This document shows, piece after piece, positions 24,360 to 64,000 of a DNA stretch of 64,000 nucleotides. Source of the stretch: a virus (lineage: Duplodnaviria; Caudoviricetes). Position 1 is the first letter of the stretch. Each line of letters begins with the position of its first letter. The notes below the pieces were generated by a model. The model made no database searches. It had not been told where the DNA came from and saw only the letters and a program-made list of their open reading frames with translations. The DNA is taken from IMG/VR virus record IMGVR_UViG_3300025580_000012, positions 7,475-71,474 of that record. One strand, given 5' to 3'. Made by a program: the position numbers and the translations under genes.

Positions 24360-24385
24360 CACCTGCATCGTAGCTGCGGTAGGGC
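24348..24385 (+). promoter_or_regulatory. Sigma70-like promoter TTGACA-N18-TAGGGC
   Basis: -35 at 24356-24361; the 20-mer GAAAACGCTTGACACCTGCA matches 46159-46178 with one mismatch. Confidence 0.55.
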
Positions 24386-25051
24386 ATGTCGATGCCCCCC
24401 TTCACCCTGTTCCACACGATCTGCGCGGACCCTCCGTGGATGTTCGGCGACAAGCTCCCGGGCGACTCGCGGGGAGCCGAGAAGAACTACCGGGTCCTGT
24501 CGGTCGACAAGATCGCCCGCTTCCTCGACGACGCGAACAACGGGTACGTGCTGGACCCGCAGACCGGCCTGGCCATCCCGCTCCGCCACCATCTCGCCCC
24601 TGACTGCCGCTTGTTCCTCTGGCGGGTCGCGTCTATGCAGCAGGAAGCCCTCGACGTCATGAAGGCGTGGGGGTTCACGCTCAAGACGGAGGTGGTGTGG
24701 GCGAAGCTGACGAGGGGGTCGAAGGTGACGAGGTGGGACGCCGAGGAGGTGGCCGCCGAGGACAAGCAGCACTTCGGGATGGGGCGGACGACCCGCGCGT
24801 CCCATGAGGTCTGCCTGGTCGGCCAGCTCGGTCGGCCCGAACGGCTAGCCTCCAACATCCGGGACGTCTTCTTCGCCCCCTACGAGGAGCACTCCCGCAA
24901 GCCCGAGGTGTTCTACCGGGAGGTCGTCGAGAAGGTTTCGCCAGGCCCCTACTTGGAGTTGTTTGCTCGACAACGGAGACCAAACTGGTATTCTCTTGGC
25001 GATGAGCTTGAACAGGAGGACGGTGAGACCAAGCGGATCGGAATCCGCTGA
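24386..25051 (+). CDS. MT-A70-family N6-adenine DNA methyltransferase
   Basis: ICADPPW, LFLW, AWGFTLKTEVVWAK, GMGRTTRASHEVCLVG, HSRKPE, LELFAR. Confidence 0.93.
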   Translation: MSMPPFTLFHTICADPPWMFGDKLPGDSRGAEKNYRVLSVDKIARFLDDANNGYVLDPQTGLAIPLRHHLAPDCRLFLWRVASMQQEALDVMKAWGFTLKTEVVWAKLTRGSKVTRWDAEEVAAEDKQHFGMGRTTRASHEVCLVGQLGRPERLASNIRDVFFAPYEEHSRKPEVFYREVVEKVSPGPYLELFARQRRPNWYSLGDELEQEDGETKRIGIR

Positions 25052-26956: not shown

Positions 26957-29140
26957 GTGAAGACGAGACACCTGGCCGAGATCCACGGGGCACCCTCATC
27001 GTTCGACCGGCTCATCAACTCGGAGCTGGGTCGCAAGTATCTGGGGCGGGCGCGGGCCGCCGAGGCGGCTGCCCGACAGGCCGCCCACGAGGCGGCCACC
27101 AGGCCACCCACCCCGCACGTCACGGTCGTGCGACGCAAGATCGCCGACGCGCTCGCCGCCCAGCTCGCCAACGACCCCACCCCCTGCATCTCCAAGTTCG
27201 ACGCCGCCCAGCTCGCGACCAAGATGGCGCGCGAGAACGGGCGCGACTTCGGACTGCGGCGCGCCGCCCTGACGCTGCACCGCATCTGGACGATCGACAA
27301 GGAGGGGTCGCTGTCGATCCGGGATCTCGCGGAGCTTCGGAGGCGCGCGGCCGCCGATGCGCCCAAGAGCTTGGCCGGCGTCCTGTTCGACGAAGTCCTC
27401 CCGCAGGCCAGCTACCACAGGCTGCCGATCAAGCGGCTGGCCGCGTTGGCCTCGACGATCACCACGCAAGCCGACTACGACCGCGTCATCCGGATGAACG
27501 GGCTGGACGGCAGCGACCCGATCGCTCGCCGGTCCCGCGCCTACATCCTCGCGCAGGTGAACCGACAGGCGCAGTACAGCGACGAGGAGTTGGGGGTGGC
27601 GGGCGAAGACCCGAGCGACACGATGGTGGCGCCCGAGTCCTCCGGGGACGCCTGCGAGTGGTGCGAGAAGCCTGCCGACTCCCTCCAGGAGCGATGGGTA
27701 CCGCTTCCGCACCCGGGCGGCTCGACCAAGCGGCTCTGTCAGTCGTGCAGCGAGTCGCTGGAGGCAGCCAACTTCAAGCGTTCGCGGCAGGCCGGTGACG
27801 ATGGCAATGCCGGTGAGCAGGCGTGGCACCCGGACGTCCCCGAGGACGGCCAGATCGGCGAGGACGCCGTCCACGTCGAGGCCCAGCGAGGTCTACCCAG
27901 CGCATCTGATCGCTCTGCAAGGCGGCAGGCCAAGCGGCACTACTGCGAGCAGTGCGGCGCCGACGTGACCGACGAGGAGTGTCCCCACTGGGACTACGAG
28001 GGCAAGAAGGCGGACAAGCCCAGCGAGCCCGAGTTCAAGCCGGCCCCCATCGTCCAGCAGCACGAAGCGACCGACCAGGAGGGTGTTGCCTTGCCCGACG
28101 CCGACATGACGAAGCTGTCGCGTGACCAGCGGCGCGCCCGCCTCAAGGCCGCCCTCAAGAAGGTCAGGCGGGCCATGACGGCCGAGCAGGTCCGCGCCCT
28201 CAAGGCCAACCTGTTCGACTGGATGACGAGGACGGCGGACGACTCGGCCGACGAGGAGCTGGCCGAGGACGTCGAGGATGTCGTCAACGAGCACATGACC
28301 GAGAACGCCCCCGAGGAGCTGAGCGAGGGGCACAAGCCGTGGGCCAAGAAGATGTCGCGCGCCCGCATCGAGGCCGCCATCCTGGATGGCCGGACCGTCA
28401 AGGTCGCCGGCTACGCCATCCGGCTGGCAAGCCGGAAGGGTCACGACCAGGTCGAGATGACGGCCCGCGGGGAGCCGCCGATGGCCTGGCCGCTCCGCCG
28501 GATGACGGCGGCGATCGACTACTACGCGAAGGTGGTGGAGGGGCAGGCGGACGAGGGACACACTTGTGATTCTTGCGCGCTTGTGGGGCAGGAGACGCCG
28601 GCCACCGAGTCCCGCGAGGTTGGACCCGGTGACTACCAAATGTCGTCGGGCGGTACCGCGTGGCTTTGCGACGAGTGTGTCGCCGAGCACGACAAGTCGG
28701 CGAGCCGGCACGGCCAGTTCGACCCGTCCGTCAACCAGCAACAGGACGATGCCGTCAAGCCGCCCGCCGCCAAGCACCCGCTCGACGAGGAGTCGTCCGC
28801 GAAGGACGTCGACTCCCTCGAACCCTCCAGCATCCTCGACAGCCATCCCGCCCAGGATCAGGCTGGCACGTCGGAGCCGTCCGACGACATGTCGGGCGTG
28901 AACGACGAGGAGGGGTTCGCCGACCCATCGGTCAAGCCCCACCACCCCACCACCGACCAGTCGGGCGTCTCGCTGCCCGCCACCGACCTGGGTCCCCACT
29001 CCAGCGGCGACGAGCCGGCCGCCTTCGAGGTGGACGTGTCGCCCGGCAGGTCCGCCGCGCGGGTCGATCGTTCGGCCCTCCGGGAGGCGATGCGCGGGAC
29101 CTTCCGGCACGTTCGCCCCACCGACCCCGAGAACGTCTGA
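26957..29140 (+). CDS. Large acidic putative virion/internal protein with Zn-finger modules
   Basis: RBS GGAGG; CEWC, CQSC, CEQC, CDSC, CDEC; linkers RQAQ, RQAG, RTAD. Confidence 0.75.
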   Translation: MKTRHLAEIHGAPSSFDRLINSELGRKYLGRARAAEAAARQAAHEAATRPPTPHVTVVRRKIADALAAQLANDPTPCISKFDAAQLATKMARENGRDFGLRRAALTLHRIWTIDKEGSLSIRDLAELRRRAAADAPKSLAGVLFDEVLPQASYHRLPIKRLAALASTITTQADYDRVIRMNGLDGSDPIARRSRAYILAQVNRQAQYSDEELGVAGEDPSDTMVAPESSGDACEWCEKPADSLQERWVPLPHPGGSTKRLCQSCSESLEAANFKRSRQAGDDGNAGEQAWHPDVPEDGQIGEDAVHVEAQRGLPSASDRSARRQAKRHYCEQCGADVTDEECPHWDYEGKKADKPSEPEFKPAPIVQQHEATDQEGVALPDADMTKLSRDQRRARLKAALKKVRRAMTAEQVRALKANLFDWMTRTADDSADEELAEDVEDVVNEHMTENAPEELSEGHKPWAKKMSRARIEAAILDGRTVKVAGYAIRLASRKGHDQVEMTARGEPPMAWPLRRMTAAIDYYAKVVEGQADEGHTCDSCALVGQETPATESREVGPGDYQMSSGGTAWLCDECVAEHDKSASRHGQFDPSVNQQQDDAVKPPAAKHPLDEESSAKDVDSLEPSSILDSHPAQDQAGTSEPSDDMSGVNDEEGFADPSVKPHHPTTDQSGVSLPATDLGPHSSGDEPAAFEVDVSPGRSAARVDRSALREAMRGTFRHVRPTDPENV

Positions 29141-29157
29141 GGCCCTGGGAGGTCGCG

Positions 29158-32100
29158 ATGTCGACGCCGATCCGCCGCCAAGCCCGGCTCATCACCGATG
29201 AGTCGTTCCACCAGTCCCCCGAGGCCCACCGGCAAGCCGCCCGGGCCTCCTTCCAGCACCCCACCATCGAGCAGATCGGTCGCGGGCTCGTTCGAGCCGC
29301 CATCCACGGCGACGCCTTCACGGTGGCGGCGCGAGTGGCAGGTGCCCCGCCTGTCACCCGCGAGCCCCCGCCCGATGGCTACCCCGTCGCCGACGAGCCA
29401 GCCGATGGGACCGGGCAGCCCCGCATGGCCGCGCCCGGCACGATCGAGACGTGCCGGCGGATCGTCCAGAACCACCAGCACGAAGAGGTCGACGGCGTCG
29501 TACTCGACGCCCAGACGGCCAACATGCTCGTCCAGGTGTTCGACGCTCTCTCGCCGAAGAACCAGGCCAAGTTCGAGGCGATGGACCTGGCCGAGATGGT
29601 CGATGTCGGCTGGAAGGTGGTGGAGCGGTCGAAGACGGGTCGACGGCGCGCCCAGCTCGACCAGGCGTTCGAGGAGCTGACCGGGGAGCATCAAGCTCTC
29701 CCGGAGGGCCACCAGGACCGCGTCCACGCCCGCCAAGCCCAATCGCTCGCCGACTTCCAGTACGGCGACAAGGTCAAGCTGAAGAAGCCGTTCAGTCAGT
29801 CGATGCGGTCGTCAACCTGGACGGTGGTGGGGCCGGGGGGCGACAGCATGCTGCTCCAGTCGGACGCGGGCGCGAAGATCCGGATCAACGAGTACGAGGT
29901 CGAGTACGTCAAGAAGGTGGCAGGCCAGTGCCAGTGCGGCCAGCCCGACTGCATGTGGTGCGGGCCGTCCACCAAGCAGGAGAAGGACGCCCAGACGCCT
30001 GACGAGGAGGAGGTTCTCCGTGGGCTCGGCTGGTCGGACGCCGCCATCCAGCAGATGTCCGAGCGGCAGATCGAGATCATCCTCCAGAAGCAGACGAAGA
30101 ACCCCAGGCCCGTCGGGCTCGGGGGCGGCCCCACCGGCCAACCCGACGACCTCCCGATGGCGGCCGCCCGTCAGGCCCAAGCGTTCGAGTGCTCGTCGTG
30201 CGGGTGCCCCAAGGGCCGCCACGACGACATGGGGTGCCGGGAGTGTGAGTGCTCGGCGTCCTACGGGATCACCGATGACGCCGAGTGGGAGGACCGGGAG
30301 CGTCAGGTCGACCAGGTCCCCGGCGTCGATCCCGCGCAGGAACGGGACAACCCGTTCGGCCCCCAGCACGGCAGCCGATCGGCGCAGTCGCGTTCGTGCC
30401 CGACGTGTGGGACGTCGCTCGGCCGCTACATCCCCGGCTATCACGCGGAGACTGGATCGCGCTGCACGAGCTGCGCGGAGTGCCCGGCCCGCTGGAAGGC
30501 GCGGAACGACAGCACCGGCGAATCGGAGGGGAACCTCTGCGACGGTTGCAAGTCCATCCTGGCCGACGGGCCCGGTTCCATCCTGACGGTCGAGCCGCTT
30601 GCGTCCTCCGGGAAGGACCGGTGGGACGACTGCCAGAAGTGCCGGGGGGATGGGTGCGGCGAGTGCGACTACACCGGCCTCATCGAGAAGGCCGCTCAGC
30701 AGAACCCCATCGAGCCCGAGCAGTCGGCGCCCGCCAGCCAACCGGGCGCCCCCGGTCCAGCCGATCCAGGTGGCGAGCAGGCCCTTCCCCCCGGTGAACC
30801 GCCCGTCCAGGGGGCCGAGCCGCCCGGACAGCAGCCCGGACAGCAGGGACTCGGGGAATCGAAGCGCAACCCCGCCCGCACCAAGGAGGTGTGGGACGAG
30901 GGGGGCAAGTTCTCCCGAGAGGTCGAGGCCGATGGGGTCGACGAACTCGTTCGGATCCACCGCGAGCTGAACGACATGGGGCTGACGCGTTCGCCCGACC
31001 AGCCTCAGCCGGCCGAGCAACAAGCCGCCCCCCAGCAGATGGCCCCCCAGGTCCCCGCTCCGCAGGGCCAGCCGGCCGTGCAGGCTCGGCGGGCCCAGAT
31101 GTTCGACGAGTGGGATGACGAGGGTGGGGGCGGCCAGGAAGCATGCCCCCTGTGCGACGCGCCTGTCCCGCAGTGGTCGCCGGGCACCGGGACGTGCAAC
31201 GCGTGCGGCTACGACGCCGAGGGGATGGCGGGCGTGGACGACTCGGTCGGCGGCGACCCCCTGTTCGAGGAGTACGCGACCGCCCTGGAGAAGTGCTCGG
31301 GGCCGGGATGCCCCCAGCAGGCCGACACGGGCGAAGAAGGTCCCGAGCAGGGCGACGAGTTCGGCTACAAGCCGAAGCGCAAGCAGCCCAGCGGAGCGCC
31401 GCCCGCGGGCGCGCCCGTAGGGGTCGGGACGCCCGGGCCGATGGGGGCAAGTCGGATGGCCCAGGAGGACGACGCCCCCCTCACCGAGCACGACATCGTT
31501 GCGGCTGCCCGGTGGCTCGCGCGGAAGTACGGGCTCGACAACCAGGAGGCCCGCGAGCTGGCCGGTCATCCCCGCTCCAGCGAGATCATCGCGCGGGTCG
31601 AGCGGTGGCGAGAGGGGAACGGCCTGCCCGCCCCCAACTCCCCGCTCTCCCGTGGCCGTCTGCTCGATGAGCTGCGGCGAGGTGTGAAGCAGGCCCAGCA
31701 GGAGCGCCCGTGTAGCTGTACGCACGCGAAGGCCGACCACGATGACGGCACGGGCCCGTGCAACAACCCGGACTGCTGGATGGGTTGCACCCAGTTCTTC
31801 ACGGGCCCGGAGCCCCGCCCGATCCCCGGCATGGAGGATTGGTTCAAGGACGAGCTGGGTGAGGACGGCATGGAGCAGGAGGGGCAGGCGTGGGCCGAGA
31901 CGTCCACGACGCCCATGAAGGCCGCCGACGACCACATCCCGACCCTCGAAGACGATGACGATGGCACCCCGTCGTTCTACTCGGCGTCGGTTGCGCGGAT
32001 CGCACAGGTCGACCCGAACTGCCCGGACTGCCACGGGACGGGCGCGTGCTCAGCGTGCGACGGCGGCTTCAACTACGGCGAGCCCGGAGATTTCGAGAAC

Positions 32101-33321
32101 CTTCCGGAGTGCCCGGTATGCTACGAGTCCGGTGAGTGCCAGACGTGCGGGCCGGCCGGCGCGATGGTCGTGGACGACTCGGGCTACGAGGATGAGGTAC
32201 CAGGAGGCGGCGGTCCGGTCGACGAGTCGGATGGGTCGATCGAAGCCCGCGAAGAGTACAAGCCGTACTCCAGCCCGGGCGCCCTCCAGTTCCCCGTGCC
32301 GGTCCTGTGCGAGGACTGCCGGACCAAGTTCTCGATCAACGGGCCGGACGACTGGTTCAAGTGCCCGTCGTGTGGGTCCGAACACGTCAACATGACGGAC
32401 CCGTCCCTCAAGGCGGCGTTCCGCCGGTGGCTCGTCGCCCAAAGCGGTCGCCACTGTGACGGTTGCGACGCCCTCATCGACGGTCCGGTCAAGAAGGTCC
32501 GGGACGATCTGGATCCGGGTCAGTTCCACCTCGTCTGCCCCGACTGTGCCGCGAAGGTCGAGCGGGGCGAACCCGTCGACTGGCAGCACAGCACACCAAG
32601 CGAGTGGAACTGGAAGCAGTCGGAAGCGCCGCTCGGTGGCCCCGCTCCCGTCTCGGACAAACCGACCGGTGAGGACGTGTTCGACGACGAGGTGTTCGAG
32701 CAGGTGGCCGCCTGGTACGACTCGATCGACGACGAGAAGTTCAAGCTGAAGATGAAGGAGAAGGACAAGGGCAAGGCCGAGCCCTCCGAGTCGAACGATG
32801 ACGAGCACGTCGCCCGGATGGCTCAAGCTCAGGACGAGGGCGAGTGCCGCGTTTGTGGTGCCTACCCGAAGCCTCTCGACGAGAAGGGCCGGTGTCCTGT
32901 TTGTGCAGAGGCGGAGAGTACGGGTCTCGTGGATGTGACGCCGTCCGGCTACCCACACAGGCGGCGTTCGAGCGATCGTCGCCGCGCCCAACCGATCGGC
33001 ATGCCTCCGGCAGCGGCCGGCATCACGTTCGACAAGTCGAACGAGCGGTCCGAGGGCGACCGGGTCGTCTGGGATCTGTCCTGGGAGCCCGAGTCGCTCG
33101 CCATGCTATCGGGGTCGGGCATCGAGCAGCAGATCCGCTCGTGGGTCCTGCGGGACGTGTCGAACGAGAAGGACACCAACCAGCCCGGCACCAAGAACTG
33201 GGGGACGATTGCTGACGTGACCATCGAAGACATCGACGCGGATGCGGGCATCGCAACCGTCTCGTTCATGTCGAGCGAGCAGGCGAGCCCGCAAGTCGCG
33301 CCCGCCGAGGCGACCGAGTAG
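29158..33321 (+). CDS. Mosaic polyprotein-like virion protein (about 1387 aa) with many Zn-finger modules
   Basis: RBS GGAGG then ATG at 29158; 12 [RK]xAQ linkers; more than 15 CxxC pairs; the ORF-track start at 28660 is an upstream shadow extension. Confidence 0.8.
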   Translation: MSTPIRRQARLITDESFHQSPEAHRQAARASFQHPTIEQIGRGLVRAAIHGDAFTVAARVAGAPPVTREPPPDGYPVADEPADGTGQPRMAAPGTIETCRRIVQNHQHEEVDGVVLDAQTANMLVQVFDALSPKNQAKFEAMDLAEMVDVGWKVVERSKTGRRRAQLDQAFEELTGEHQALPEGHQDRVHARQAQSLADFQYGDKVKLKKPFSQSMRSSTWTVVGPGGDSMLLQSDAGAKIRINEYEVEYVKKVAGQCQCGQPDCMWCGPSTKQEKDAQTPDEEEVLRGLGWSDAAIQQMSERQIEIILQKQTKNPRPVGLGGGPTGQPDDLPMAAARQAQAFECSSCGCPKGRHDDMGCRECECSASYGITDDAEWEDRERQVDQVPGVDPAQERDNPFGPQHGSRSAQSRSCPTCGTSLGRYIPGYHAETGSRCTSCAECPARWKARNDSTGESEGNLCDGCKSILADGPGSILTVEPLASSGKDRWDDCQKCRGDGCGECDYTGLIEKAAQQNPIEPEQSAPASQPGAPGPADPGGEQALPPGEPPVQGAEPPGQQPGQQGLGESKRNPARTKEVWDEGGKFSREVEADGVDELVRIHRELNDMGLTRSPDQPQPAEQQAAPQQMAPQVPAPQGQPAVQARRAQMFDEWDDEGGGGQEACPLCDAPVPQWSPGTGTCNACGYDAEGMAGVDDSVGGDPLFEEYATALEKCSGPGCPQQADTGEEGPEQGDEFGYKPKRKQPSGAPPAGAPVGVGTPGPMGASRMAQEDDAPLTEHDIVAAARWLARKYGLDNQEARELAGHPRSSEIIARVERWREGNGLPAPNSPLSRGRLLDELRRGVKQAQQERPCSCTHAKADHDDGTGPCNNPDCWMGCTQFFTGPEPRPIPGMEDWFKDELGEDGMEQEGQAWAETSTTPMKAADDHIPTLEDDDDGTPSFYSASVARIAQVDPNCPDCHGTGACSACDGGFNYGEPGDFENLPECPVCYESGECQTCGPAGAMVVDDSGYEDEVPGGGGPVDESDGSIEAREEYKPYSSPGALQFPVPVLCEDCRTKFSINGPDDWFKCPSCGSEHVNMTDPSLKAAFRRWLVAQSGRHCDGCDALIDGPVKKVRDDLDPGQFHLVCPDCAAKVERGEPVDWQHSTPSEWNWKQSEAPLGGPAPVSDKPTGEDVFDDEVFEQVAAWYDSIDDEKFKLKMKEKDKGKAEPSESNDDEHVARMAQAQDEGECRVCGAYPKPLDEKGRCPVCAEAESTGLVDVTPSGYPHRRRSSDRRRAQPIGMPPAAAGITFDKSNERSEGDRVVWDLSWEPESLAMLSGSGIEQQIRSWVLRDVSNEKDTNQPGTKNWGTIADVTIEDIDADAGIATVSFMSSEQASPQVAPAEATE

Positions 33322-34632: not shown

Positions 34633-37257
34633 ATGCCAGTCGATCCGCGCAAGCCCTTCCTCGCCGATCCGGACGTTGCGGGTCGGCTGGCCCGTCGGCT
34701 GGCCCACCGGGCCGACCTCGGCGTGACCGCCCAGGCGGAGGTCGCGTGCGACGTGTGCGGCACGGAGATCCCGTACGGCGAGGAGGTCGTGGAGGGGGGA
34801 CCTCCCCAGCGCGACCGCCGCTACTACCACGAGAAGTGTCGGCCGGCTGCCTTCGAGGAAGAGTGGCCAGGCGCCAAGAAGTGGCGAAACGCGGGCAGGA
34901 CGGCCCAGTCGTGGGCGCGGCCGAGCGACACGGCCCACACGGTCGTCTGGTTCTACACGGCTGAGTCGATCAAGCCGACCACCGAGGTGACGGCTGAGGT
35001 GGTGGTCAGCCCGATCAAGCGGGCCCAGGGGCTCCAGGGGCGAGAGCGACTCCACCCCGCGACCGGCATGCTGTTCCTCCAGCCGGGCGGGCCGGTCGAG
35101 CGACCCGAGCGCTACCACATGGGGTCGGTCGCGTTCCCGATCGACATCGTCTTCCTCCGACGGACCGGCGAGATCGGCCGCATCATCCACGACATTCAGC
35201 CGGGCTCGAAGGGGACGTGGGGCTACCCCACCACCGCGGCCGTCATCGAGTTGGTCGGGGGGTTCTGCCGGGCGCACGGCATCCGCGAGGGCGACCGGGT
35301 CGGATTCGGCAAGGTGGGGCGCGTAGCGGCCGCCCGACATACAAGCGGGGCGACCGCTACAACCACCCGTCGAGCTGAGGCGTTCCGGGCGCTCCGGTGC
35401 CCCGCGTGCGGGACGAATCGCGCGGTCCAGGCGGCCGGGCAGACGTGGGGGTCGGCCGAGATGGCCGGCAAGATGGCGGAGGCGGGCGAGCGGACGGCTC
35501 GATGCCTCGGGTGCGGGTACGAGGGGTCGATCGCCGCCTTCGATACCCCCCTGCCGACCGAGTACCGCATGAGGGCTGGTCGGACTGCGCAGGCATCCTG
35601 CCCGAAGTGTCAGTCGACCGAGTTTTCTCGGGATTACGGCTGCGCGTCGTGCGGGTGGACTGGCCATTGCCAGGCGTGCGGGGGCACCGATAGCGGGGCA
35701 CACGGGAAATGCACCTCGTGCAAAGGGACGGGCTACTCGACCGAGATGCGGAAGCTCCGGGGCCTCTGCTCCAACTGCAACGGGTACGGCTGCGCGCTGT
35801 GCGGGGGAACGGGCGAGGCAAACCCCCGTCAGGCTTCCCGCCGGACCGCCTGGGGGGAGACGTGCGAGTGCGGTCACATGCGCGACCAGCACCAGGACCG
35901 CGAGCGTCAGCCCGGGCAGTCCTGCCTGGTGACGGGGTGCGGGTGCGGTGGGTGGAAGAAGGCGGCCCAGCTCGAACCCGGCCAGGCGATGTGCCGGTCG
36001 TGCGGGTGGTTCGGCCCTCGTGACGAGTTCGTCGACGTCTCGGACTACGGGCTCGGCGACGATGGTGGGATGGATGGGTTGCCCAAGCCCATGTGCCCGG
36101 ATTGCGGCGAGACGTCCATCAAGTTCGCCTCCCGCCGGGCCCTCATCACCTGCGGGTACTGCTACAGCCGCGCCCGCTGCGAGGGCAAGCCGTACGAGAC
36201 GATGGGCGATTCCTCGTGGAAGATGGACCCGGGGCTGTTCTGCTGCGACGAGTGCAAGCAGCACATCGAGGGCTGCCGGTACTGCCAAGAGGCTCGTGGG
36301 AATCCGACCTTCCGGTCGCTCGACGAGTTGCGCCAGCAGGTTGCCCGCCGGGCCCAGACCACGTGTCCTGACTGCGATGGCAAGGGATACACCGATGCGT
36401 CTTACTGCCCTCGGCGGTGCAACGGGGAGGATCCGAACTGCCCTGATTGCGATGGCAAGGGCTACGCTGATGCGGCCTACTGCCGGACGTGCGACACGTC
36501 CGGCCGCGCCGCTCAGATGTCCCCCATCCCCTCCGTCCCCTCCGCCAAGCCCGCCGAGGACTCGGGCAAGAAGAAGGGGAACGGGGAGGAGTGCGACGGG
36601 TGCGGCGTGTCAGCCCCCGGCCTCCTCCAGCCCGTCACGGACGGCATCTACGAGCCCAACCCAGCCGAGCCGGGCGCCGCCATCCAGCGGTTCCTCTGCC
36701 CCGACTGCATGGCGGTCGATCTGGACGAGGACGATGGGGACTGGGGTGGGATGGAGGAGGTCGCCCAGATGGTCGAGCCGCCCCCCGCCTGCAAGGCGTG
36801 CGGGCGGGATGCGACCGACGGGTACGAGATGCCCGGGCAAGGCATGCTCTGCCCGGATTGCTCGGACGACTACGTCGACAGCCAAGGGGGCGCCGAGCCG
36901 TTCGACCAAGAGGCCGACACCGTCGACTACATCGAGGAGGACGACGACCCCGAGTGGATCGAGCAGGATGACCACTTCGTCCAGTACCCGCCCGGCGAGG
37001 ACGAGCGGGATGCCGCCGGCACGTCCCACGACCTCCTCCGCAGCCTGACGGAAGCGAGTCGGAAGACGGCCACGTGGACGTTCCCGACCTACGAGGAGGC
37101 GTTCCAGTACGCCCAGCAGCAAGCGAACGCGACCGGCATCTCGATGGGGTTGGAGAAGCCGACCGCGTACGAGAAGGGCTGGAACGTCTCGTTCCTCCCG
37201 AAGCCCGCGAACCGGTCGGGCTGGGAGCTGCGTTGCCAAGTCGTGGATCCGATGTGA
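34633..37257 (+). CDS. Mosaic protein: DUF192 domain plus DnaJ-type CxxCxGxG and other zinc fingers
   Basis: RAQGLQGRERL...GMLF...HMGSVAFPIDIVFL...VIELVGG....GIREGDRV (DUF192); CTSCKGTG, CSNCNGYG, CALCGGTG, CPDCDGKG x2. Confidence 0.82.
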   Translation: MPVDPRKPFLADPDVAGRLARRLAHRADLGVTAQAEVACDVCGTEIPYGEEVVEGGPPQRDRRYYHEKCRPAAFEEEWPGAKKWRNAGRTAQSWARPSDTAHTVVWFYTAESIKPTTEVTAEVVVSPIKRAQGLQGRERLHPATGMLFLQPGGPVERPERYHMGSVAFPIDIVFLRRTGEIGRIIHDIQPGSKGTWGYPTTAAVIELVGGFCRAHGIREGDRVGFGKVGRVAAARHTSGATATTTRRAEAFRALRCPACGTNRAVQAAGQTWGSAEMAGKMAEAGERTARCLGCGYEGSIAAFDTPLPTEYRMRAGRTAQASCPKCQSTEFSRDYGCASCGWTGHCQACGGTDSGAHGKCTSCKGTGYSTEMRKLRGLCSNCNGYGCALCGGTGEANPRQASRRTAWGETCECGHMRDQHQDRERQPGQSCLVTGCGCGGWKKAAQLEPGQAMCRSCGWFGPRDEFVDVSDYGLGDDGGMDGLPKPMCPDCGETSIKFASRRALITCGYCYSRARCEGKPYETMGDSSWKMDPGLFCCDECKQHIEGCRYCQEARGNPTFRSLDELRQQVARRAQTTCPDCDGKGYTDASYCPRRCNGEDPNCPDCDGKGYADAAYCRTCDTSGRAAQMSPIPSVPSAKPAEDSGKKKGNGEECDGCGVSAPGLLQPVTDGIYEPNPAEPGAAIQRFLCPDCMAVDLDEDDGDWGGMEEVAQMVEPPPACKACGRDATDGYEMPGQGMLCPDCSDDYVDSQGGAEPFDQEADTVDYIEEDDDPEWIEQDDHFVQYPPGEDERDAAGTSHDLLRSLTEASRKTATWTFPTYEEAFQYAQQQANATGISMGLEKPTAYEKGWNVSFLPKPANRSGWELRCQVVDPM
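36364..36474 (+). repeat. 75-bp-period coding direct repeat (CPDCDGKGY x2)
   Basis: TGTCCTGACTGCGATGGCAAGGGATACACCGATGCG at 36364 vs TGCCCTGATTGCGATGGCAAGGGCTACGCTGATGCG at 36439. Confidence 0.85.
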
Positions 37258-46533: not shown

Positions 46534-49500
46534 ATGACCGCCCAGAACCCGTTCGGCCCGGAAGCCCGGGCACGCCGCCGGCTCGCCCGCATCCAGCGCT
46601 TTGCAGGCGCGTTCGCCACGTCTCCAACGCTTCCGGGCAACGACAGCGAGGACGGCCCTCTCGACCGCCGACGTCTTCCGACCGCCGCCATCAAGCTGGC
46701 CAACGAATTCCTTGGCCAATTCACGTGGCCCATCATCCCGACCCTCGTCTACCGGGGCATCCGGACGGCCACCCGCGACGAGCAGACGCCCGCCATCGAG
46801 GCGGACGCCCACGTCATTCTGTCGGCCCAGATCGTCACGCTGACGGGGTGCCGGAGGGAAGTGGACGTCCCCGTGGTCGTCCGGCGGGGCGAGCTGCTCG
46901 AACCGTCCGTCATGATCGTCGATGGCGTCCCCCGCATCATCTCCCAGTCGCTCGTCGACGAGGTCGTCCGCCAGGGGACGTTCAAGCAGAAGGTCGACCC
47001 ACGGGGCGGCATGTTCGCCCCTCCCCTCGACCGCGAGGGGTACGACGCGTTCGTCGACCTCGACGAGGCGTTCAAGATCCAGGACCGCTACTCTCGCGGG
47101 CTCTACAGCGTGGCGGGACGGCGGACCGCCCAGGAGAAGCCCTACCGGGAGAAGCCGTTCCGCCTGGGTGACCGCGTGACGGTCGACGGCGACGAAGCTG
47201 TCGTCAAGGAGTGCTACCCGGATGGGTCGTCCTCCTACATGTTCCCCCACTGCAAGGTCGACTTCATCGACGGCGACAGGAACGTGGCCGTTCCGCTCGA
47301 TCGCGTGCAGAAGAAGGCGGGCAAGACGGCCCAGTCCCAGCTCGACGAGCAGACCATCCACATCCTCCAGCAGCTCGTCCAGTTCGGTCCGTGGACACCG
47401 CGGGGACCTGGTGAGGCGATCGGTCCCGAGTACCTCCAGCCGTTGGTCGACCAGGGGCTCGTCGAGGTTGCGGGCAAGACTGTGACGATCACGGATGCGG
47501 GTCGGGCGGCCGTCGAGGGGCAGGCCAGCCTGTTGGCCGCCCGGATGGCTCGCGGGGATGTCCAGGGCCGCTGCAAGGTGTGCGGCTACATGGCGGCCGA
47601 GCCGGAGTTCGGTGAGCCGCCCGCGTGCCCCGCGTGCCAGTCGCCCGAGATCGGGTGGGGCATGCAGGCCCAGCGGTCCGACCGGGACGAACCCGCGTGT
47701 CCACAGTGCGGTGGCTGGTTGGAAGGGGGTCGGCGGCCGGACGGCAAGGACTGCCCGCGGTGCGGCGAGTTCGTCCGGAACGAAGACATCAAGCAATGGT
47801 CGCCAGACACTAAGTACCCGGCCAGCGACGCCCCCGGCTTCGAGGACGCGCCCGACTGGGATGACGTTCGGCCGCGCACCGGGCAGTCGTCGTTGGGCGA
47901 CCCGAAGATCCGGACGGCCGGGGGCTACGAGGAGGACGAGATCGCCCTCCTGGAAGCCATGCCGGTCGAGCAGTTGGTGTTGGTGCTGTCCGAGTGGCAG
48001 CGCATGAAGGACCCGCAGGCCGCCGAGTTCATCGAGACGATCGAAGACATCCTGAAGTCGAAGGGGTACCAGCCTGGACACAAGGACGCCAGTAGGACGG
48101 CCCAGCGGTACGAGCCGGGCGCCCGCGTGAAGGTGTCGGGCGATCCCGCTCGCGTGCTGGAGCAGGTCCATGAGCCTACCGGGAACGGCGCGTGGGACGG
48201 GAGCTACCGGGTCGAGTGGCTCGATGGCCATACCGATGTCGTCCCCGAATCGAAGCTGTCGGTCGACCGGGACCAAGAGACCCTCCGGCACGTCGAGGCG
48301 TGGAGCCCCGACCCCGAGTTCAACCCCGACTACGATTTCAAGTGTCCGGCTTGCCAGAAGGTCTACTGGTGGGACGGGGAGGAGAGTGGCTCGACCGTTC
48401 CGGCCGATGGGGTGTGCTCGTGTGGCGAGCAGCTCCGGGGGGAAGACGGCGAGTTGTTCAAGGGGGCACAGTCCAGCTCGATCCCCAAGCCCGATCCCAT
48501 GTACGGGACCAACGAGGCGTGGCAGCAGTATTACGAGCGGGTCCGCGAGCAGGAGGCGAGGCAGGTCGAGTGCGAGTCGTGCGGGGAGAAGGGGGAGTGG
48601 CCTCTGTCGGGTTCGGACCTCCGCCTCTGTCCCGAGTGCGTGAACGACGAGATCGACATCCGGCACCCAGAGCCGGCTGCCGCGCCCGACGATGACGACG
48701 TCCCCGACGACATCGATCAACTCGTCATGGAGCCGAACGTGACATGTGCGTGCGGGTCGAGCGCGTTCGAGGTCGGGACGGACGGCCTCGTGTGCGCGGC
48801 GTGCGGGGCGCCCATGGCCAAGCAAGCACAGGCGGGTGGTTCGTGGCCGATGCCAGGCGAGGACGTCCTCCAGACGCCGACGGGCCGGTGGCAGTGGATC
48901 TTCGATGCCGATACCAAGCGGGCCCGCTACTACCACCTGGAGTGCGATGGGTACGCCGGGCAGGATGGTGACTGCGAGCTGTGCGGGGCGCCGAGCCCGT
49001 CGAGCCCGAGGTACGTGACGACCGGCAAGGGGACGTATGGGCCGCGGTCGGGCGCCCGCGAAGGCGACGGCATGCCCGCCGAGCACAACCGGTCGCGCCG
49101 GGAAGACGACTTCTTGGCCGGCCAGGCCGTCACGTTCTCGCGGTCGTTCCGCGAGCGGACCCGTGGCGGCCCCTCCTACCTGGTCGAGTCGGGTGCGTCC
49201 GGCCGGGTCATCCGGGACGTCTTCGAGGACGGTACCTCCTTCGAGGTCGAGGTGGATGGCCGCAAGGTCGTGGTGCCGCGCGAAACCTTGAAGCGGTCGG
49301 GCAGGCGCGCCGACGTCATTGAGTACCCGCCGGATGGCCGGGAGTTCCGGTGCCGGAAGTGTGGCGCCACCCACCCGGTCAACCGGCTGGTGTCGGCGGA
49401 GATCGTTGACGGCCCCACGACGGTCGCGTGCCCCGCGTGCTACTCAGTCGACCTCGACCGCATTGCTCGCGCGACCGTCGACCAGGTCGTTCGTGAAGTC

Positions 49501-49635
49501 GAAGCCCTCAAGCAGGAGGGCTACGACGACATCGACGCCATGTTGGCCGTCCACCAGAAGTATCCCGACCTCGCCGACGCCGTCATGCAGGCCGCCCGCG
49601 ACAAGGGTCTCCTCGACCTCGATGGTGAGCAATGA
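46534..49635 (+). CDS. Mosaic polyprotein-like virion protein (1033 aa) with SH3-like and Zn-finger modules
   Basis: Linkers RRTAQ, KTAQ, RTAQ, KGAQ, KQAQ; F/Y.(L/P)G(D/A)RV.V SH3-like modules; many CxxC. Confidence 0.8.
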   Translation: MTAQNPFGPEARARRRLARIQRFAGAFATSPTLPGNDSEDGPLDRRRLPTAAIKLANEFLGQFTWPIIPTLVYRGIRTATRDEQTPAIEADAHVILSAQIVTLTGCRREVDVPVVVRRGELLEPSVMIVDGVPRIISQSLVDEVVRQGTFKQKVDPRGGMFAPPLDREGYDAFVDLDEAFKIQDRYSRGLYSVAGRRTAQEKPYREKPFRLGDRVTVDGDEAVVKECYPDGSSSYMFPHCKVDFIDGDRNVAVPLDRVQKKAGKTAQSQLDEQTIHILQQLVQFGPWTPRGPGEAIGPEYLQPLVDQGLVEVAGKTVTITDAGRAAVEGQASLLAARMARGDVQGRCKVCGYMAAEPEFGEPPACPACQSPEIGWGMQAQRSDRDEPACPQCGGWLEGGRRPDGKDCPRCGEFVRNEDIKQWSPDTKYPASDAPGFEDAPDWDDVRPRTGQSSLGDPKIRTAGGYEEDEIALLEAMPVEQLVLVLSEWQRMKDPQAAEFIETIEDILKSKGYQPGHKDASRTAQRYEPGARVKVSGDPARVLEQVHEPTGNGAWDGSYRVEWLDGHTDVVPESKLSVDRDQETLRHVEAWSPDPEFNPDYDFKCPACQKVYWWDGEESGSTVPADGVCSCGEQLRGEDGELFKGAQSSSIPKPDPMYGTNEAWQQYYERVREQEARQVECESCGEKGEWPLSGSDLRLCPECVNDEIDIRHPEPAAAPDDDDVPDDIDQLVMEPNVTCACGSSAFEVGTDGLVCAACGAPMAKQAQAGGSWPMPGEDVLQTPTGRWQWIFDADTKRARYYHLECDGYAGQDGDCELCGAPSPSSPRYVTTGKGTYGPRSGAREGDGMPAEHNRSRREDDFLAGQAVTFSRSFRERTRGGPSYLVESGASGRVIRDVFEDGTSFEVEVDGRKVVVPRETLKRSGRRADVIEYPPDGREFRCRKCGATHPVNRLVSAEIVDGPTTVACPACYSVDLDRIARATVDQVVREVEALKQEGYDDIDAMLAVHQKYPDLADAVMQAARDKGLLDLDGEQ

Positions 49636-53590: not shown

Positions 53591-56164
53591 ATGGATAGGC
53601 TGCTCGGCTTGGTTGGTGTGGCGGACGTGGGCGGCACCCCCGTCCACGTCCAGGTGGTTGGCGAGACGGATGCGGGTCGCCTGCTGGTCCAGCGGGTCGG
53701 CCGGCAAGAGCCCGTCACCCTCATCGAGCGGACCGCATTCGTCGCCGAGCTGGCCATCGCGCCCGAACCCCTCAGCGACGGCGTCAGGAGCGCCGCCCTC
53801 GACCTCAGCCAGGCGATCGAGCGGGCCAAGGCGATGGCGGGCACGGACCACCTGCTCGACCAGGAGGACTACCAGATCCTCCACGACGAGCTGGAGGAGA
53901 CGGACCAGTACCCGTTCGCCGCCGCGCTCGTCGAGCATGGCGTGCAGGTCAGGACCGGGGGCCGCCAGGCCGTCCAGGACGTCGTGACCGACCCGCACGG
54001 CGAGGCGGACGGGCTCGCTCTCCACCCCGAGCCCTGGGCGTCGCCCGGGGGCGCCGGGGAAGCGGCGGGCGCAGGAATGGACGGGCAGGACGCCCCCGCG
54101 TTCGCCCCGTGGGATCCGGGCGGCCAGGGGGACGGCATCTCGAACGAAGAGGCCCACACGGAGCACGAGTTCCCGGGCGTCAGGACGCTCGCCCAGCGGG
54201 ACTACGGGCAGGCGTCGAACGCGACCAACGAGACGATGCCATCCCACATCTGGACCCATGAAGTCTCGATGGCGGCGATTCATGCGGGTGTGCCGGCTGC
54301 GTTCGTCGACAAGATGCGCGATCGAATCTCTCGGGCGTATGGGGCGGGTGAGGCCGTATGGATGGTGGCGGACGAACTGGTCTTCCGTTGGCAGCGATCT
54401 GAGATCGAAGACCGCTCCGACCACGAGATGGACTTCTTGCGGCAAACGCATCCGAAGGAAGGGGTGCGCGGCCGGTCCGCCCAGTTCCAGCCCGGCCAGG
54501 TCATCTGCCAGGATTGCGGCAAGACCTTCGACCAGGCCGACGCGGTGGTGCCGGGCCATTGCCCCGCGTGTGCCGACCACGACTACCCGTTCGTCGAGGA
54601 CGCTCGCAAGCGCGGACAGGTCAATCGCCTGACCGTCGACCCCGAGGATCTCGCCGCCGACTACAAGGCGCGGGGGTTGGAGCGGACACGCGCGTGGGGC
54701 GAGTTCGTCAAGGACCGGGCCCTTCAGCCCGAGATGGACGCCAAGCAGTTCTACGCCATCTTCGACCAGGTCTCGCCTGCCCGCCTGCCCGGCCCCTCGT
54801 ACGAGACGGCCGCCGACTTCCAGGCCACCCACCTCGACACCCTGACGGACACGAAGGTGCAGATCACTCCCACGGACTTCGGCCACAAGCTCGTGTGGGA
54901 AGGGGGGATGACGGGGTCGAACCCTGGGCCCCTTGACGAGGGCCGGTTCAAGCCGATCGCGCGCAAGCGCGCCGGTCACCCGGCCGTCGACCAGGCCCGC
55001 CGCATCTTCCAGGTCGAGCTGGCCGGCGCCGAGGAGCAGCTTGGCCTCGGCCTCGACCACGAGGTGCGGACGGGTGGGACGGAGAACGTCGAAGAGGTCT
55101 GCTTCGAGTGCGGGGTGCCGTGGAACCCGGCCAGCGGTTTCGTGGCGGGCCCGCAGGACACCCCGTTCTGCAAGGGGTGCTCGGATGCGGCAGCCCGGTG
55201 GGTAGAGCGGTGGACCCAATCGAAGGGGCGGCGTAAGGGTCCCCCCTACTTCTACGATCACAACACCCCCGTCGACACCACCGACTTGCCCCTTGATGAC
55301 GGCAAGGAAGCGGCGGAGCCCTGCAAGGAATACTGCGGCGAGCCCGACTGCCCGGCCCTTGACCTCCCCGACCACGAAGCCGAGATGGGGTGGTCGGGCT
55401 CCGAGTTGGTCGACGAGCGGTGGGCGTCCGTCTCCATGATGGACATCGCGAAGCACCCGCTCGGCCGCCCCCACCACGACCTGGAGAAGGACTCGGATCT
55501 CGGGACGCCATCGGGCCGGGAGCGCGGCCTCAACCCCTCGGTCCACGAGCAGGCCAACCAGGCGTACGGGTCGGACAACCAGTTCGAGGATGCCGACCTC
55601 CACATGGGTCGGGTGCGTACGCCCGGCCGCCTCAACCTGTCCGACTACTTCGGGCCGGTCGGCAAGTGCCTGGCGTGCGGGGCGATGGCGACCAAGGAAG
55701 CGTTCAAGATGGTGGACGGCTGGGAACGGTGCCCGGCATGCCGGAGCGACCGGGTCGGCTTCATCGATGCGGGCAAGGGGATGCGTGACCTCGTCGCCGG
55801 TGAGGCGGACGCGTACGAGACGGCCCCGCCGCTGTCCAAGGGGGACGGGGAGGGCGTGTTCGACGACCAGCCTGACGGAGTCACGATTCAGCCGCACGCG
55901 AGCGCGGGGCGGTCGGCCCAGGGGATCGGCATCTCGGGTGACGCGTTCGAGGACCCGGGCGCCGGTGAACCGCTCGACCCCCACGACGAAGACGCCGCCC
56001 CCGACCCCAAGGACTTCGGCGTGATGGTGTCGATGCGGCAGCTCGCCCAGGGGGTCGACAACCGCTCGTCCGACCCGAACGTCCAGACCGATGTAGACGA
56101 GCAGCAGGGCGACCGGGGGATCGCCCGTCCGCCGGCCGTCGAGGACGTCCGGTACCCGAGGTGA
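53591..56164 (+). CDS. Mosaic acidic virion protein with Zn-finger modules
   Basis: RBS GGAGG; RSAQ x2; CQDC..CPAC, CFEC..CKGC, CLAC..CPAC. Confidence 0.78.
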   Translation: MDRLLGLVGVADVGGTPVHVQVVGETDAGRLLVQRVGRQEPVTLIERTAFVAELAIAPEPLSDGVRSAALDLSQAIERAKAMAGTDHLLDQEDYQILHDELEETDQYPFAAALVEHGVQVRTGGRQAVQDVVTDPHGEADGLALHPEPWASPGGAGEAAGAGMDGQDAPAFAPWDPGGQGDGISNEEAHTEHEFPGVRTLAQRDYGQASNATNETMPSHIWTHEVSMAAIHAGVPAAFVDKMRDRISRAYGAGEAVWMVADELVFRWQRSEIEDRSDHEMDFLRQTHPKEGVRGRSAQFQPGQVICQDCGKTFDQADAVVPGHCPACADHDYPFVEDARKRGQVNRLTVDPEDLAADYKARGLERTRAWGEFVKDRALQPEMDAKQFYAIFDQVSPARLPGPSYETAADFQATHLDTLTDTKVQITPTDFGHKLVWEGGMTGSNPGPLDEGRFKPIARKRAGHPAVDQARRIFQVELAGAEEQLGLGLDHEVRTGGTENVEEVCFECGVPWNPASGFVAGPQDTPFCKGCSDAAARWVERWTQSKGRRKGPPYFYDHNTPVDTTDLPLDDGKEAAEPCKEYCGEPDCPALDLPDHEAEMGWSGSELVDERWASVSMMDIAKHPLGRPHHDLEKDSDLGTPSGRERGLNPSVHEQANQAYGSDNQFEDADLHMGRVRTPGRLNLSDYFGPVGKCLACGAMATKEAFKMVDGWERCPACRSDRVGFIDAGKGMRDLVAGEADAYETAPPLSKGDGEGVFDDQPDGVTIQPHASAGRSAQGIGISGDAFEDPGAGEPLDPHDEDAAPDPKDFGVMVSMRQLAQGVDNRSSDPNVQTDVDEQQGDRGIARPPAVEDVRYPR

Positions 56165-61296: not shown

Positions 61297-61302
61297 GAGG
61301 GC

Positions 61303-62209: not shown

Positions 62210-64000
62210 ATGTCGCTCATCATCCCAGGCGGATCAGGAGACCCCAGGCGGCAAGCCGCGCGCAACCCGTTCCGCCAGGAGGAGGTCCACGGCCTGACCG
62301 CCGACCAGATGGAGGCAATGAACCGGAAGTTCGAGGGGATGCTCCCCCAGATCGTCTCGGGCAACCCGGACGCCCAGCGGGCCGGCCTGCTCGAAGATGA
62401 CTTCCGGCGGATCGGCGCGACCCCTTCACCGTTCCGTCGGTTCGGCCAGACGGTCGCGGGCGGCACGAACTACGGGGCCGGCAACCTCGTCTCCCAGCAG
62501 ACCCCATATCAGCCGGAGTTCTCGTCGCCGGACCGCCAGCAGTACCCGGTCCACCGCATCCTCGCCAACCGGTACTGGCGCCTGTTCCACAAGATGGATC
62601 CGGTGGTTGGCAATTGCCTCGACATGTACAGCGAGATGCCGTGGTCGCCGTTCCAGTTGACCGGCGAGGGGGTCGACGGCGAGGTCAAGGAGCACTACGA
62701 GCGGATGACCGAGAAGGTCAAGCTCCTCCCCCTCCTCCCCTACATCGTCCGCGAGTTCCTGGTCGTTGGGGAAGCCATCCCCCACCTCCTGTACGACGGC
62801 GACGCGCGCATGTGGGACTACTGCACCCTCCACAACCCCGACAACATCGAGGTGATCGACGCCCCGTTCATCCGGATGGACCCGATCGTCGAGCTGGTCC
62901 CCGACCAGAAGCTCCGTGACCTCCTGTCGTCGGGCGACCCCCTCGTCCAGAAGGTCAAGGCCCAGCTCCCGCCCGAGCTGCTCGGCCGTCTGCTGTCCCG
63001 TCAGAACCTCCCGCTCGACCCGCTCAACTGCACGTTCATCCCGCGCAAGCTCCACCCGTACGAGACGCGCGGGACGTCGATCATGTCGCGGTTGTGGCGC
63101 GTCTTCATGCTGGAGGACGCCGTCTTCTCGGCGACGATCGCGACGGCCCGCCGGCACGCCGGCCCCCTCCGGATCGCCAAGATCGGCAACCCGCAGACCG
63201 GCTGGATCCCGGGCGCCGAGCACGAGAAGCGGCTCCTCGAACTGCTCGCCCAGGCGGAACTCGACCCCCTTGCCTGGATCGTCTACCACTTCGGCGTCCA
63301 GTTCGAGGCGTTCGGCACGACCGACCGGGTCATCTCGGTGGGGCGCGAGTGGGAGGTGTTGGAGCGGATCAAGCTGGTCGGGCTCGGCGTGTCCAAGTCG
63401 TTCCTGCACGGCGAGGTCACGTACGCGTCGTCGGTGACGGGCCTCCAGGTCTTCCTCCAGCGCCTCCTCGCCCTCCGCAGCTACTTCGAGATGACCTGGC
63501 TGTACCCCAAGTTCTTCCGGCCGATCGCCGAGATCAACGAGTTCGTCAAGCCCACGCAGGCGGAGCTGTCCCACCGGGTCCGCGTCCGCCGGACCGCCCA
63601 GGAGATCGACGACGATTCGAGGTACATCGTCCCCACGCTCGACTGGGACAAGAAGCTCGACCCCTACGTCGACCGCGAGTTGATCGGCGCGTACGAGGCG
63701 CTCGAACGCATCGGCGTCAAGATTTCCAAGAAGACGAAGCTGGCGGCCGTTGGCCTCAAGCACGAGGACGAGCTGCGGTCGTCCATCCAGGAGGAAGTCC
63801 TGGAGGCCCGCGAGCGCCAGAAGTACGAGGAGGCGTTGGGGCCGGCCGGCCAGGGACCGACCGGCGTCAAGCCCGGCCAACAGCCCGGCCAACCGGGCAC
63901 CCAGCAACAGCAGGCGCCCGGCCGCGGTCAGCCGGGTGGCCCTCCAGCCATCCAGCCGCCCCCCAGACCCGGCACTCAGCCGGCCGCCCTTCCCCCCCCC
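62210..64000 (+). CDS. Portal protein (5' partial; runs off the window end)
   Basis: Frame open from ATG 62210 to the end; FHKMDPVVGNCLDMYSEMP, REFLVVGEA, LHNPDNIEV, RKLHPYETRGTSIMSR, IAKIG, ERIKLVGLGVSKSFLHG; absent from the ORF track because no stop is reached. Confidence 0.82.
   Translation, partial: MSLIIPGGSGDPRRQAARNPFRQEEVHGLTADQMEAMNRKFEGMLPQIVSGNPDAQRAGLLEDDFRRIGATPSPFRRFGQTVAGGTNYGAGNLVSQQTPYQPEFSSPDRQQYPVHRILANRYWRLFHKMDPVVGNCLDMYSEMPWSPFQLTGEGVDGEVKEHYERMTEKVKLLPLLPYIVREFLVVGEAIPHLLYDGDARMWDYCTLHNPDNIEVIDAPFIRMDPIVELVPDQKLRDLLSSGDPLVQKVKAQLPPELLGRLLSRQNLPLDPLNCTFIPRKLHPYETRGTSIMSRLWRVFMLEDAVFSATIATARRHAGPLRIAKIGNPQTGWIPGAEHEKRLLELLAQAELDPLAWIVYHFGVQFEAFGTTDRVISVGREWEVLERIKLVGLGVSKSFLHGEVTYASSVTGLQVFLQRLLALRSYFEMTWLYPKFFRPIAEINEFVKPTQAELSHRVRVRRTAQEIDDDSRYIVPTLDWDKKLDPYVDRELIGAYEALERIGVKISKKTKLAAVGLKHEDELRSSIQEEVLEARERQKYEEALGPAGQGPTGVKPGQQPGQPGTQQQQAPGRGQPGGPPAIQPPPRPGTQPAALPPP

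Follow-up and report, generated by a model that had tools for sequence, protein, structure and literature searches.

A putative head-cargo polyprotein with basic-x-Ala-Gln joints in a large tailed phage

Introduction

The internal proteins IPI-III and Alt of phage T4 are small cargo proteins of the procapsid, whose capsid-targeting sequence is removed by gp21 and which are injected together with the DNA, and the herpesvirus assemblin (pUL26/UL80a) acts on release and maturation sites of the form V/L/I-x-Ala↓Ser, where the arrow marks the bond cut. The present work deals with an open reading frame (ORF) termed P0001, which occupies positions 29158-33321 of a 64-kb stretch of viral DNA (record IMGVR_UViG_3300025580_000012), hereafter the window, and whose product of 1387 amino acids (aa) is punctuated by twelve sites of the form [RK]xAQ. 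P0001 is read here as probably, though by no means certainly, a head-associated cargo polyprotein that would be cut by a head protease of the phage G gp19 type.

In the phiKZ gp175, 201phi2-1 and SPN3US gp245 systems, head and ejection proteins are cut by the prohead protease at the motif S/A/G-x-Glu or A-x-Glu (PMC10052503). The portal, the scaffold-like and the abundant internal proteins of such giant phages share a short motif, sometimes in several copies, and the maturation protease cuts it within the procapsid (PMC10052503). The general principle of short-motif processing of head proteins is already established for T4, phiKZ and SPN3US, and P0001 extends this known theme. In comparison with the giant phages, the motif here is basic-x-Ala-Gln instead of x-Glu, and the candidate protease is of the phage G gp19 type (phrog_18299) instead of the T4 gp21 type. 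The cleavages identified in SPN3US, except for the self-cleavage of the protease, remove N-terminal propeptides, whereas the twelve joints of P0001 are predicted to give rise to 13 mini-proteins, mostly zinc ribbons. Likewise, the T4 cargo proteins are encoded by separate genes with one leader each, whereas the putative cargo described here is concatenated in chains of 800-1600 aa, in which no targeting leader was recognized. The resemblance to assemblin resides in the P3-x-Ala↓P1' pattern and in a release site that directly follows the protease domain of a protease-scaffold fusion, while the P3 residue, hydrophobic in assemblin sites, is basic here, and Gln takes the place of Ser at P1'; moreover, assemblin acts on two sites in one substrate family, in contrast with the dozens of sites found here across cargo chains.

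Polyvalent proteins, described by Iyer et al. in 2017, are very long multi-module proteins that are encoded beside virion genes, are extensively shuffled, and were proposed to be delivered together with the DNA and processed into units (PMC5512222). P0001 is similarly modular, and a bona fide polyvalent protein is encoded 5 kb downstream in the window. Unlike those proteins, P0001 consists of tiny modules (30-130 aa) without the catalogued effector, LPD or metallopeptidase (MPTase) domains, and it displays an explicit, repeated linker motif that is probably read by a head protease rather than by an internal zincin. The features that set P0001 apart from the known systems are the motif, the protease family, the density of the joints and the tiny, mostly zinc-binding modules; neither a chain of this kind nor a basic-x-Ala-Gln motif was found described in the literature searched.

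The polyprotein and its joints

The region 29158-33321 of the plus strand translates as a single open frame, the first methionine of which is invariant in an alignment with nine homologues. All twelve [RK]xAQ sites that an earlier note had listed were recovered identically, at residues 163, 192, 276, 338, 407, 511, 644, 766, 844, 947, 1220 and 1275, and where the note estimated about one such site by chance, the amino acid composition gives an expectation of 0.85 and 2000 shuffled sequences contained 0.83 sites on average and seven at most (Poisson probability of at least 12 sites, 1.4e-10). The codons used at the sites vary (CGG, CGC, CGT, CGA or AAG for the basic residue; GCC, GCG, GCT or GCA for Ala; CAG or CAA for Gln), which indicates selection on the peptide instead of a DNA repeat, and the sequences flanking the sites are unrelated to each other. 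A DNA-level repeat or recombination site was ruled out as an explanation by the same codon variation. Cuts at all twelve sites would yield 13 fragments of 29-273 aa, nine of which have a predicted isoelectric point (pI) of 5.1 or below and seven of which contain CxxC pairs. The precursor of a ribosomally synthesized and post-translationally modified peptide (RiPP) with multiple cores was also considered and rejected, as the fragments are mutually unrelated and range from 29 to 273 aa.

The chain was modelled with AlphaFold2 in two halves on the basis of a shallow alignment of ten sequences, which resulted in a mean predicted local distance difference test (pLDDT) score of 53-54. The features of the ORF are listed below, with the pLDDT of the surrounding block where it is informative.

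29158..33321, plus strand: P0001 polyprotein ORF, 1387 aa, 149.6 kDa, pI 4.6, 3.8% Cys
29147..29152, plus strand: ribosome-binding site GGGAGG, 5 nucleotides (nt) upstream of the ATG at 29158
29644..29655, plus strand: site 1, RRAQ, residues 163-166, on the C-terminal border of the confidently modelled domain 92-175
29731..29742, plus strand: site 2, RQAQ, residues 192-195, pLDDT block 42, canonical in 5 of 10 aligned sequences (four homologues)
29983..29994, plus strand: site 3, KDAQ, residues 276-279, directly preceding the helical mini-domain 281-314 (pLDDT 85-88)
30169..30180, plus strand: site 4, RQAQ, residues 338-341, linker, pLDDT 37, followed by a zinc-ribbon module
30376..30387, plus strand: site 5, RSAQ, residues 407-410, start of the cassette 411-514 that recurs in a 46534-family protein of contig G002
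30688..30699, plus strand: site 6, KAAQ, residues 511-514, preceding a conserved QNPxEP block, canonical in 8 of 10 sequences
31087..31098, plus strand: site 7, RRAQ, residues 644-647, linker, pLDDT 33-35, followed by a zinc ribbon
31453..31464, plus strand: site 8, RMAQ, residues 766-769, linker, pLDDT 30, directly preceding the helical domain 773-852
31687..31698, plus strand: site 9, KQAQ, residues 844-847, in the last helix of the domain 773-852, block pLDDT 73 and next block 43
31996..32007, plus strand: site 10, RIAQ, residues 947-950, linker, pLDDT 25, followed by CPDC zinc-ribbon modules
32815..32826, plus strand: site 11, RMAQ, residues 1220-1223, pLDDT block 44, followed by a zinc ribbon
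32980..32991, plus strand: site 12, RRAQ, residues 1275-1278, present in 10 of 10 family members, directly preceding the conserved C-terminal module
32992..33318, plus strand: C-terminal alpha/beta module, residues 1279-1387, pLDDT 83-91

The claim of the earlier note that discrete mini-domains lie between the sites was upheld in part. Six small domains were modelled with confidence (approximately residues 92-175, 281-314, 663-692, 773-852, 1043-1112 and 1287-1375), and many CxxC pairs are distributed over a chain of about 13 modules, while the proposed SH3-like unit (196-279) was obtained only at low confidence. The joints were not found to be buried: none of the twelve falls in the core of a domain, ten are located in 10-residue blocks with a pLDDT of 50 or less, those at residues 163 and 844 occupy the last block of a confident domain, and those at 276, 766 and 1275 immediately precede one. 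As over half of the chain is modelled at low confidence, the linker position by itself is weak evidence. The ends of local BLAST alignments (high-scoring segment pairs) between P0001 and its relatives are a stronger guide to the module boundaries, because 26 of them lie within 6 residues of a site, compared with 11.7 ± 3.2 for random placement (maximum 24 in 5000 trials); many of these ends represent the same C-terminal boundary, and others are found at residues 279, 341, 410, 647, 769 and 950.

Exchange of modules between chains was also observed. Between sites 5 and 6 lies a cassette (409-517 in the alignment) that shares 55% identity with one from a different polyprotein, encoded on the sister contig G002 and belonging to the family of the window protein starting at 46534 (46534 family); the alignment of the two cassettes begins at AQ-S. 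The C-terminal module of P0001 is inserted in mid-chain in 46534-family proteins of other phages and exists in other phages as stand-alone proteins of about 150 aa as well, while a search for shorter stand-alone proteins with the central conserved domain (515-650) found none. The combination of many unrelated modules in one polypeptide with shuffling between relatives is that of polyvalent proteins, although none of the catalogued polyvalent domains (MPTase, LPD, ArdC-N, DdrB-ParB, effector enzymes) was detected in P0001 with Pfam or PHROGs. The profile searches that the earlier note had suggested gave only a sub-threshold Pfam match to the HypA zinc ribbon and no match in PHROGs; ten proteins sharing the C-terminal module could not be assigned to any PHROGs family either, and comparison of both half-models with the PDB by Foldseek and VIA-align wide produced nothing above background (best Z 7.3, for a helical domain).

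Within the 273-aa fragment 11, a non-canonical RWLVAQ-SGRHCDGC was noticed (window 32431-32445; residues 1092-1096), which has the usual appearance of AQ followed by S..C..C but carries no basic residue at the second position ahead of Ala; a weaker additional joint may be present here.

Homologues and specificity of the motif

Nine metagenomic homologues of P0001 were found, with 33-52% identity over the whole alignment and 35-66% in local BLASTP matches. They differ greatly in architecture, and each of them carries 7-13 sites where about one is expected; site 3, for example, is kept at its position in four homologues and replaced by RRGQ in a fifth. For the family together with four enriched proteins of the window, 109 sites were counted against 10.5 expected. 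An enrichment of approximately 10-fold was found individually for Arg or Lys (position 1), Ala (position 3) and Gln (position 4), and for no other residue at these positions. The two residues preceding the basic one tend to be small (A/G, then S/G/A) and the residue after Gln shows no preference, so that the consensus linker peptide can be written as [A/G]-[S/G/A]-[R/K]-x-Ala-Gln. Distant relatives of low GC (guanine plus cytosine) content, which are rich in Lys, free of Cys and share a module with the family, use the same joint (P0037 with nine sites, P0032 with six and P0021 with four), which shows that the motif is tied neither to zinc ribbons nor to GC content. A tblastn search of P0001 against 50,697 phage records returned no match, and scans of viral and genome contig collections with the family alignment retrieved G002 as the sole match.

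The candidate protease and its presumed substrates

No protease domain was detected within P0001 by Pfam or PHROGs, the ORF contains no HExxH, and no protease-like fold was seen among the confident domains of a chain over half of which is modelled at low confidence. A polyprotein of the RNA-virus type, with an embedded protease, is consequently unsupported.

The candidate enzyme comes from relatives. In Virus Rctr197k, G001 and L008, the portals of which are 51-56% identical to that of the window, a homologue of phage G gp19 is encoded after the portal and matches phrog_18299, annotated as 'head maturation protease'. Rctr197k_047 (L003 5254-8250, annotated as misc_feature only) is a 998-aa fusion of a phrog_18299 protease with a scaffold-like tail of about 700 aa, and is followed by a decoration-like protein and then by the capsid gene. 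In this fusion KAAQ and RAAQ stand directly after the protease domain; the scaffold-like protein of L008 has four sites, PGLGG[KTAQ] being common to L008 and G001, and fusion proteins among the IMG/VR relatives of the phrog_18299-type protease contain 15 sites against about 5 expected. The portals of the clade, moreover, display a conserved N-terminal SPFR-[RK]-x-[AG]-Q, represented in the window by the following feature.

62438..62449, plus strand: portal N-terminal RFGQ, residues 77-80; relatives have RFGQ, KLGQ or RTAQ at the same position

The portal, the scaffold and the release site of the protease are classical substrates of capsid-maturation proteases (PMC10052503), and virion proteins of PaBG were reported with multiple cleavage sites (PMC7412058). 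Because the motif occupies just these places in the relatives, the joints of P0001 may be assigned to a protease of the phrog_18299 type.

The bond cut would probably be Ala↓Gln rather than the one after Gln, with which the sequence logo by itself is also compatible. Ala↓Gln is favoured by the release site and by the pattern of degenerate sites. Among ten protease-scaffold proteins (nine from IMG/VR and that of Rctr197k), the release site reads REIL-[K/R]-[T/A/S]-Ala in nine, the exception having Gln for the basic residue; Ala is present in all ten, and the following residue is variable (S, Q, G, H or A). The degenerate sites of the family and the portals are of two kinds: in one, Gln is retained and Gly or Ser stands in for Ala (KRGQ, RRGQ, KTSQ, RFGQ, KLGQ), and in the other, Ala is retained and Gln gives way to Ser or Ala (RRAS, RHAS, RQAA). 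Such a pattern would be coherent with a small P1 and a tolerant P1', by analogy with herpesvirus assemblin (V/L-x-Ala↓Ser). In the alignment A4 of the L008, G001, Rctr197k and phage G gp19 proteins, His112, Ser184 and His210 are invariant, and Ser184 forms part of a zinc-ribbon-like insert, SMGC-x-C...C-x-x-CG. In their order and rough spacing, the three invariant residues resemble the assemblin triad.

Genomic context and distribution of the motif

The window covers 64 kb of a 71.5-kb viral contig with an estimated completeness of 41% (CheckV); its GC content is 67% and the plus strand carries every gene. A family A DNA polymerase, UvsX and SbcCD are encoded in the window, and P0001 is placed between these replication genes on one side and the large terminase and portal on the other, which by gene order is the late or virion block of a tailed phage. 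The same gene order is found in Rctr197k and G001, where the protease, scaffold and capsid genes come after the portal. Rctr197k is the nearest named relative (portal identity 51%), followed by phage G, PaBG and related jumbo phages. The source is best explained as an uncultured tailed phage with a large genome (about 175 kb) that belongs to the lineage of Rctr197k, PaBG and phage G. Its DNA is present in at least ten wetland metagenome runs; the runs listed by a search of sequencing data were all DNA runs from wetland metagenomes, with no RNA run among them.

The distribution of the motif follows the division of the genome, with 31 sites against 6.3 expected in all late genes and 3 against 3.9 in the early or replication block; the replication proteins, encoded on the same contig and equally GC-rich, show no excess. 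The genes concerned are as follows.

26957..29140, plus strand: upstream 727-aa protein with one RQAQ (residues 203-206), which is RKAQ in the distant homologue P0037
33738..34628, plus strand: 296-aa, Cys-free, Ala/Glu/Pro-rich protein, 3 sites against 0.42 expected
34633..37257, plus strand: second polyprotein, 874 aa, 6.2% Cys, 6 sites against 0.44 expected
38568-46160, plus strand: polyvalent protein, 2530 aa, with LPD1, double zinc ribbon, HNH, RelA/SpoT and a HELGH zincin at nt 40107
46534..49635, plus strand: third polyprotein, 1033 aa, 5 sites against 0.56 expected
51344-53581, plus strand: large terminase
53591..56164, plus strand: 857-aa protein after the large terminase, 2 RSAQ sites against 0.45 expected
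61297-61893, plus strand: HEIGH protein, 199 aa, two hydrophobic helices at the N-terminus and the HEIGH motif at the C-terminus, encoded immediately before the portal
62210 to the end of the window, plus strand: portal, truncated by the end of the contig

One module of the Cys-rich polyprotein at 34633-37257 (residues 119-224) is a DUF192/COG1430 domain (E 1.7e-18). The DUF192 module has KRAQ at its start and RTAQ about 30 residues upstream, and homologues of the module occur in Rctr197k and G001. Searches of PDB sequences with three unannotated neighbouring proteins gave no match.

Proposed processing and its evaluation

With regard to packaging and cutting, to the enzyme that this phage would use, to the precise bond and to the role of the pieces, we infer the following. 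P0001 would be made as one acidic chain of 150 kDa, composed of zinc ribbons, small helical domains and a C-terminal alpha/beta module, which are connected by presumably flexible linkers with [A/G]-[S/G/A]-[R/K]-x-Ala-Gln. Together with at least three neighbouring chains, it would be incorporated into the procapsid, where an assemblin-like head-maturation protease of the phrog_18299 type would cut the joints, most likely between Ala and Gln, and would also trim scaffold and portal. Once set free, the mini-proteins (3-30 kDa) might remain in the head and would probably be ejected with the DNA. The earlier description of P0001 as a polyprotein is supported in part. It agrees with the site counts in the homologues, with the linker or edge positions of the sites, with the block ends and the swapped cassette, and with the release site and scaffold of the relatives; this support does not extend to an embedded protease.

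Several results weigh against this proposal. The head protease, the scaffold and the major capsid protein were found neither on the 41%-complete contig nor on G002, and a search of this contig and of G002, both of them fragments of genomes, for phrog_18299 gave no match; as the phage's own protease is not on the contig, the link between enzyme and motif is drawn from relatives with portal identities of 51-56%. There the motif is in modest excess, with 2-4 sites per scaffold or fusion protein, and a de novo search for enriched tripeptides in the proteome of the complete, distant relative G001 revealed nothing comparable. With about 57% of P0001 at low pLDDT, the placement of 10 of 12 sites in linkers is only marginally non-random (binomial P ~0.06 by our own estimate), and a test of insert boundaries on the MAFFT alignment, which offered five inserts only, showed no enrichment (P 0.6). 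Finally, a single [RK]xAQ site (1.56 expected) occurs in the neighbouring polyvalent protein of 2530 aa, which, if processed, would follow a different code from the chains around it. Apart from these results, the Rctr197k proteome shows no strong overall excess of the motif, and searches of this contig, G001, G002 and Rctr197k with Pfam Peptidase_S78 and S77 gave no match, a result that is uninformative in that the S77 control matched nowhere.

Alternative explanations

One alternative holds that the joints are cleaved by another peptidase of the phage, either before packaging or after injection, the candidates being the HELGH MPTase of the polyvalent protein and the small, membrane-anchored HEIGH protein encoded just before the portal. 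The gene for the polyvalent protein, which also has LPD1, HNH and RelA/SpoT domains, is located on the same strand 5 kb downstream of P0001, and MPTase domains were proposed by Iyer et al. to process polyvalent proteins (PMC5512222), but that protein is itself devoid of motif enrichment. The HEIGH protein is 63% identical to a protein of G002 and yields weak ESM Atlas leads to SprT/YgjP-like proteins; against it, it matches no family, its ESM Atlas scores do not rise above chance, and the 10 kb upstream of the L010 portal yielded no homologue. Since the motif in the relatives is placed in classical substrates of head proteases, namely the portal, the scaffold and the site at which the protease is released, an enzyme of this other kind is considered improbable.

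According to another alternative, the motif is an uncut linker or docking peptide, such as a capsid-loading or partner tag or an inherited junction sequence, and the chain works as beads on a string. The cassettes seem to move with their N-terminal AQ, so that the recurrence of the motif could be partly historical; a giant virion protein, the virion RNA polymerase (vRNAP) of phage N4, is packaged uncut (PMC5512222). On the other hand, the unrelated flanks and differing codons of the sites indicate that selection, and not copying, maintains the motif, the strict specificity at three positions with small residues upstream resembles the subsite pattern of a protease, and the same peptide is located where the protease-scaffold fusions must release themselves. 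An uncut chain is accordingly held to be a minor possibility. Chance or composition in a protein rich in Ala (9.7%), Gln (6.5%) and Arg (5.8%), in which AQ dipeptides are twice as frequent as expected, is excluded as the source of the excess, for none of the 2000 shuffles reaches the 12 sites observed, the family and the four enriched window proteins together have 109 sites against 10.5 expected, and the same motif occurs in low-GC, Lys-rich relatives and is not in excess in equally GC-rich replication proteins.

Implications

If the joints are cut, a single gene would give rise to about 13 mini-proteins and four neighbouring genes to some 20 more, a compact way for a large phage to fill its head with a multitude of small proteins that are shuffled rapidly and may be carried into the host along with the DNA. 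Such processing would furthermore define a new cleavage code, basic-x-Ala↓Gln, for the poorly studied capsid-protease family of the phage G gp19 type, which appears assemblin-like in the logic of its sites, and the motif could then help to predict which proteins are virion cargo, and where the mature proteins begin and end, in metagenomic phages that are beyond the reach of proteomics. A more far-reaching and distinctly tentative idea, which we consider less likely than its opposite, is that the clade keeps an exchangeable 'cassette library' of dozens of zinc-ribbon and other mini-proteins in the form of a few polyproteins, in which the basic-x-Ala↓Gln joints would serve both as the cutting code of an assemblin-like capsid protease and as the seams of module swapping from chain to chain and from phage to phage, and from which the capsid would deliver fast-evolving injected mini-effectors, for instance with anti-defence functions. 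Such an organization of cargo, if true, is undescribed for any cultured phage.

Further observations

A 222-aa HECEH protein is encoded a few genes after the portal in L006 (6123-6791), whose portal is 69% identical to that of the window; it has a weak match to DUF6782, 'putative metallopeptidase' (E 1e-4), and a protein of this type is absent from the other relatives examined. Within the window, an MT-A70 methyltransferase is encoded in the early block (24383-25048) and a protein with an RyR domain between the terminase and the portal (56210-57130). The portal ORFs of two close relatives are unusually long, with 1237 aa in L004 (9944-13657) and 1364 aa in L010 (10001-14095), compared with about 800 aa elsewhere; the additional stretch, which begins after approximately residue 313-375, might represent an intein or an inserted homing endonuclease.

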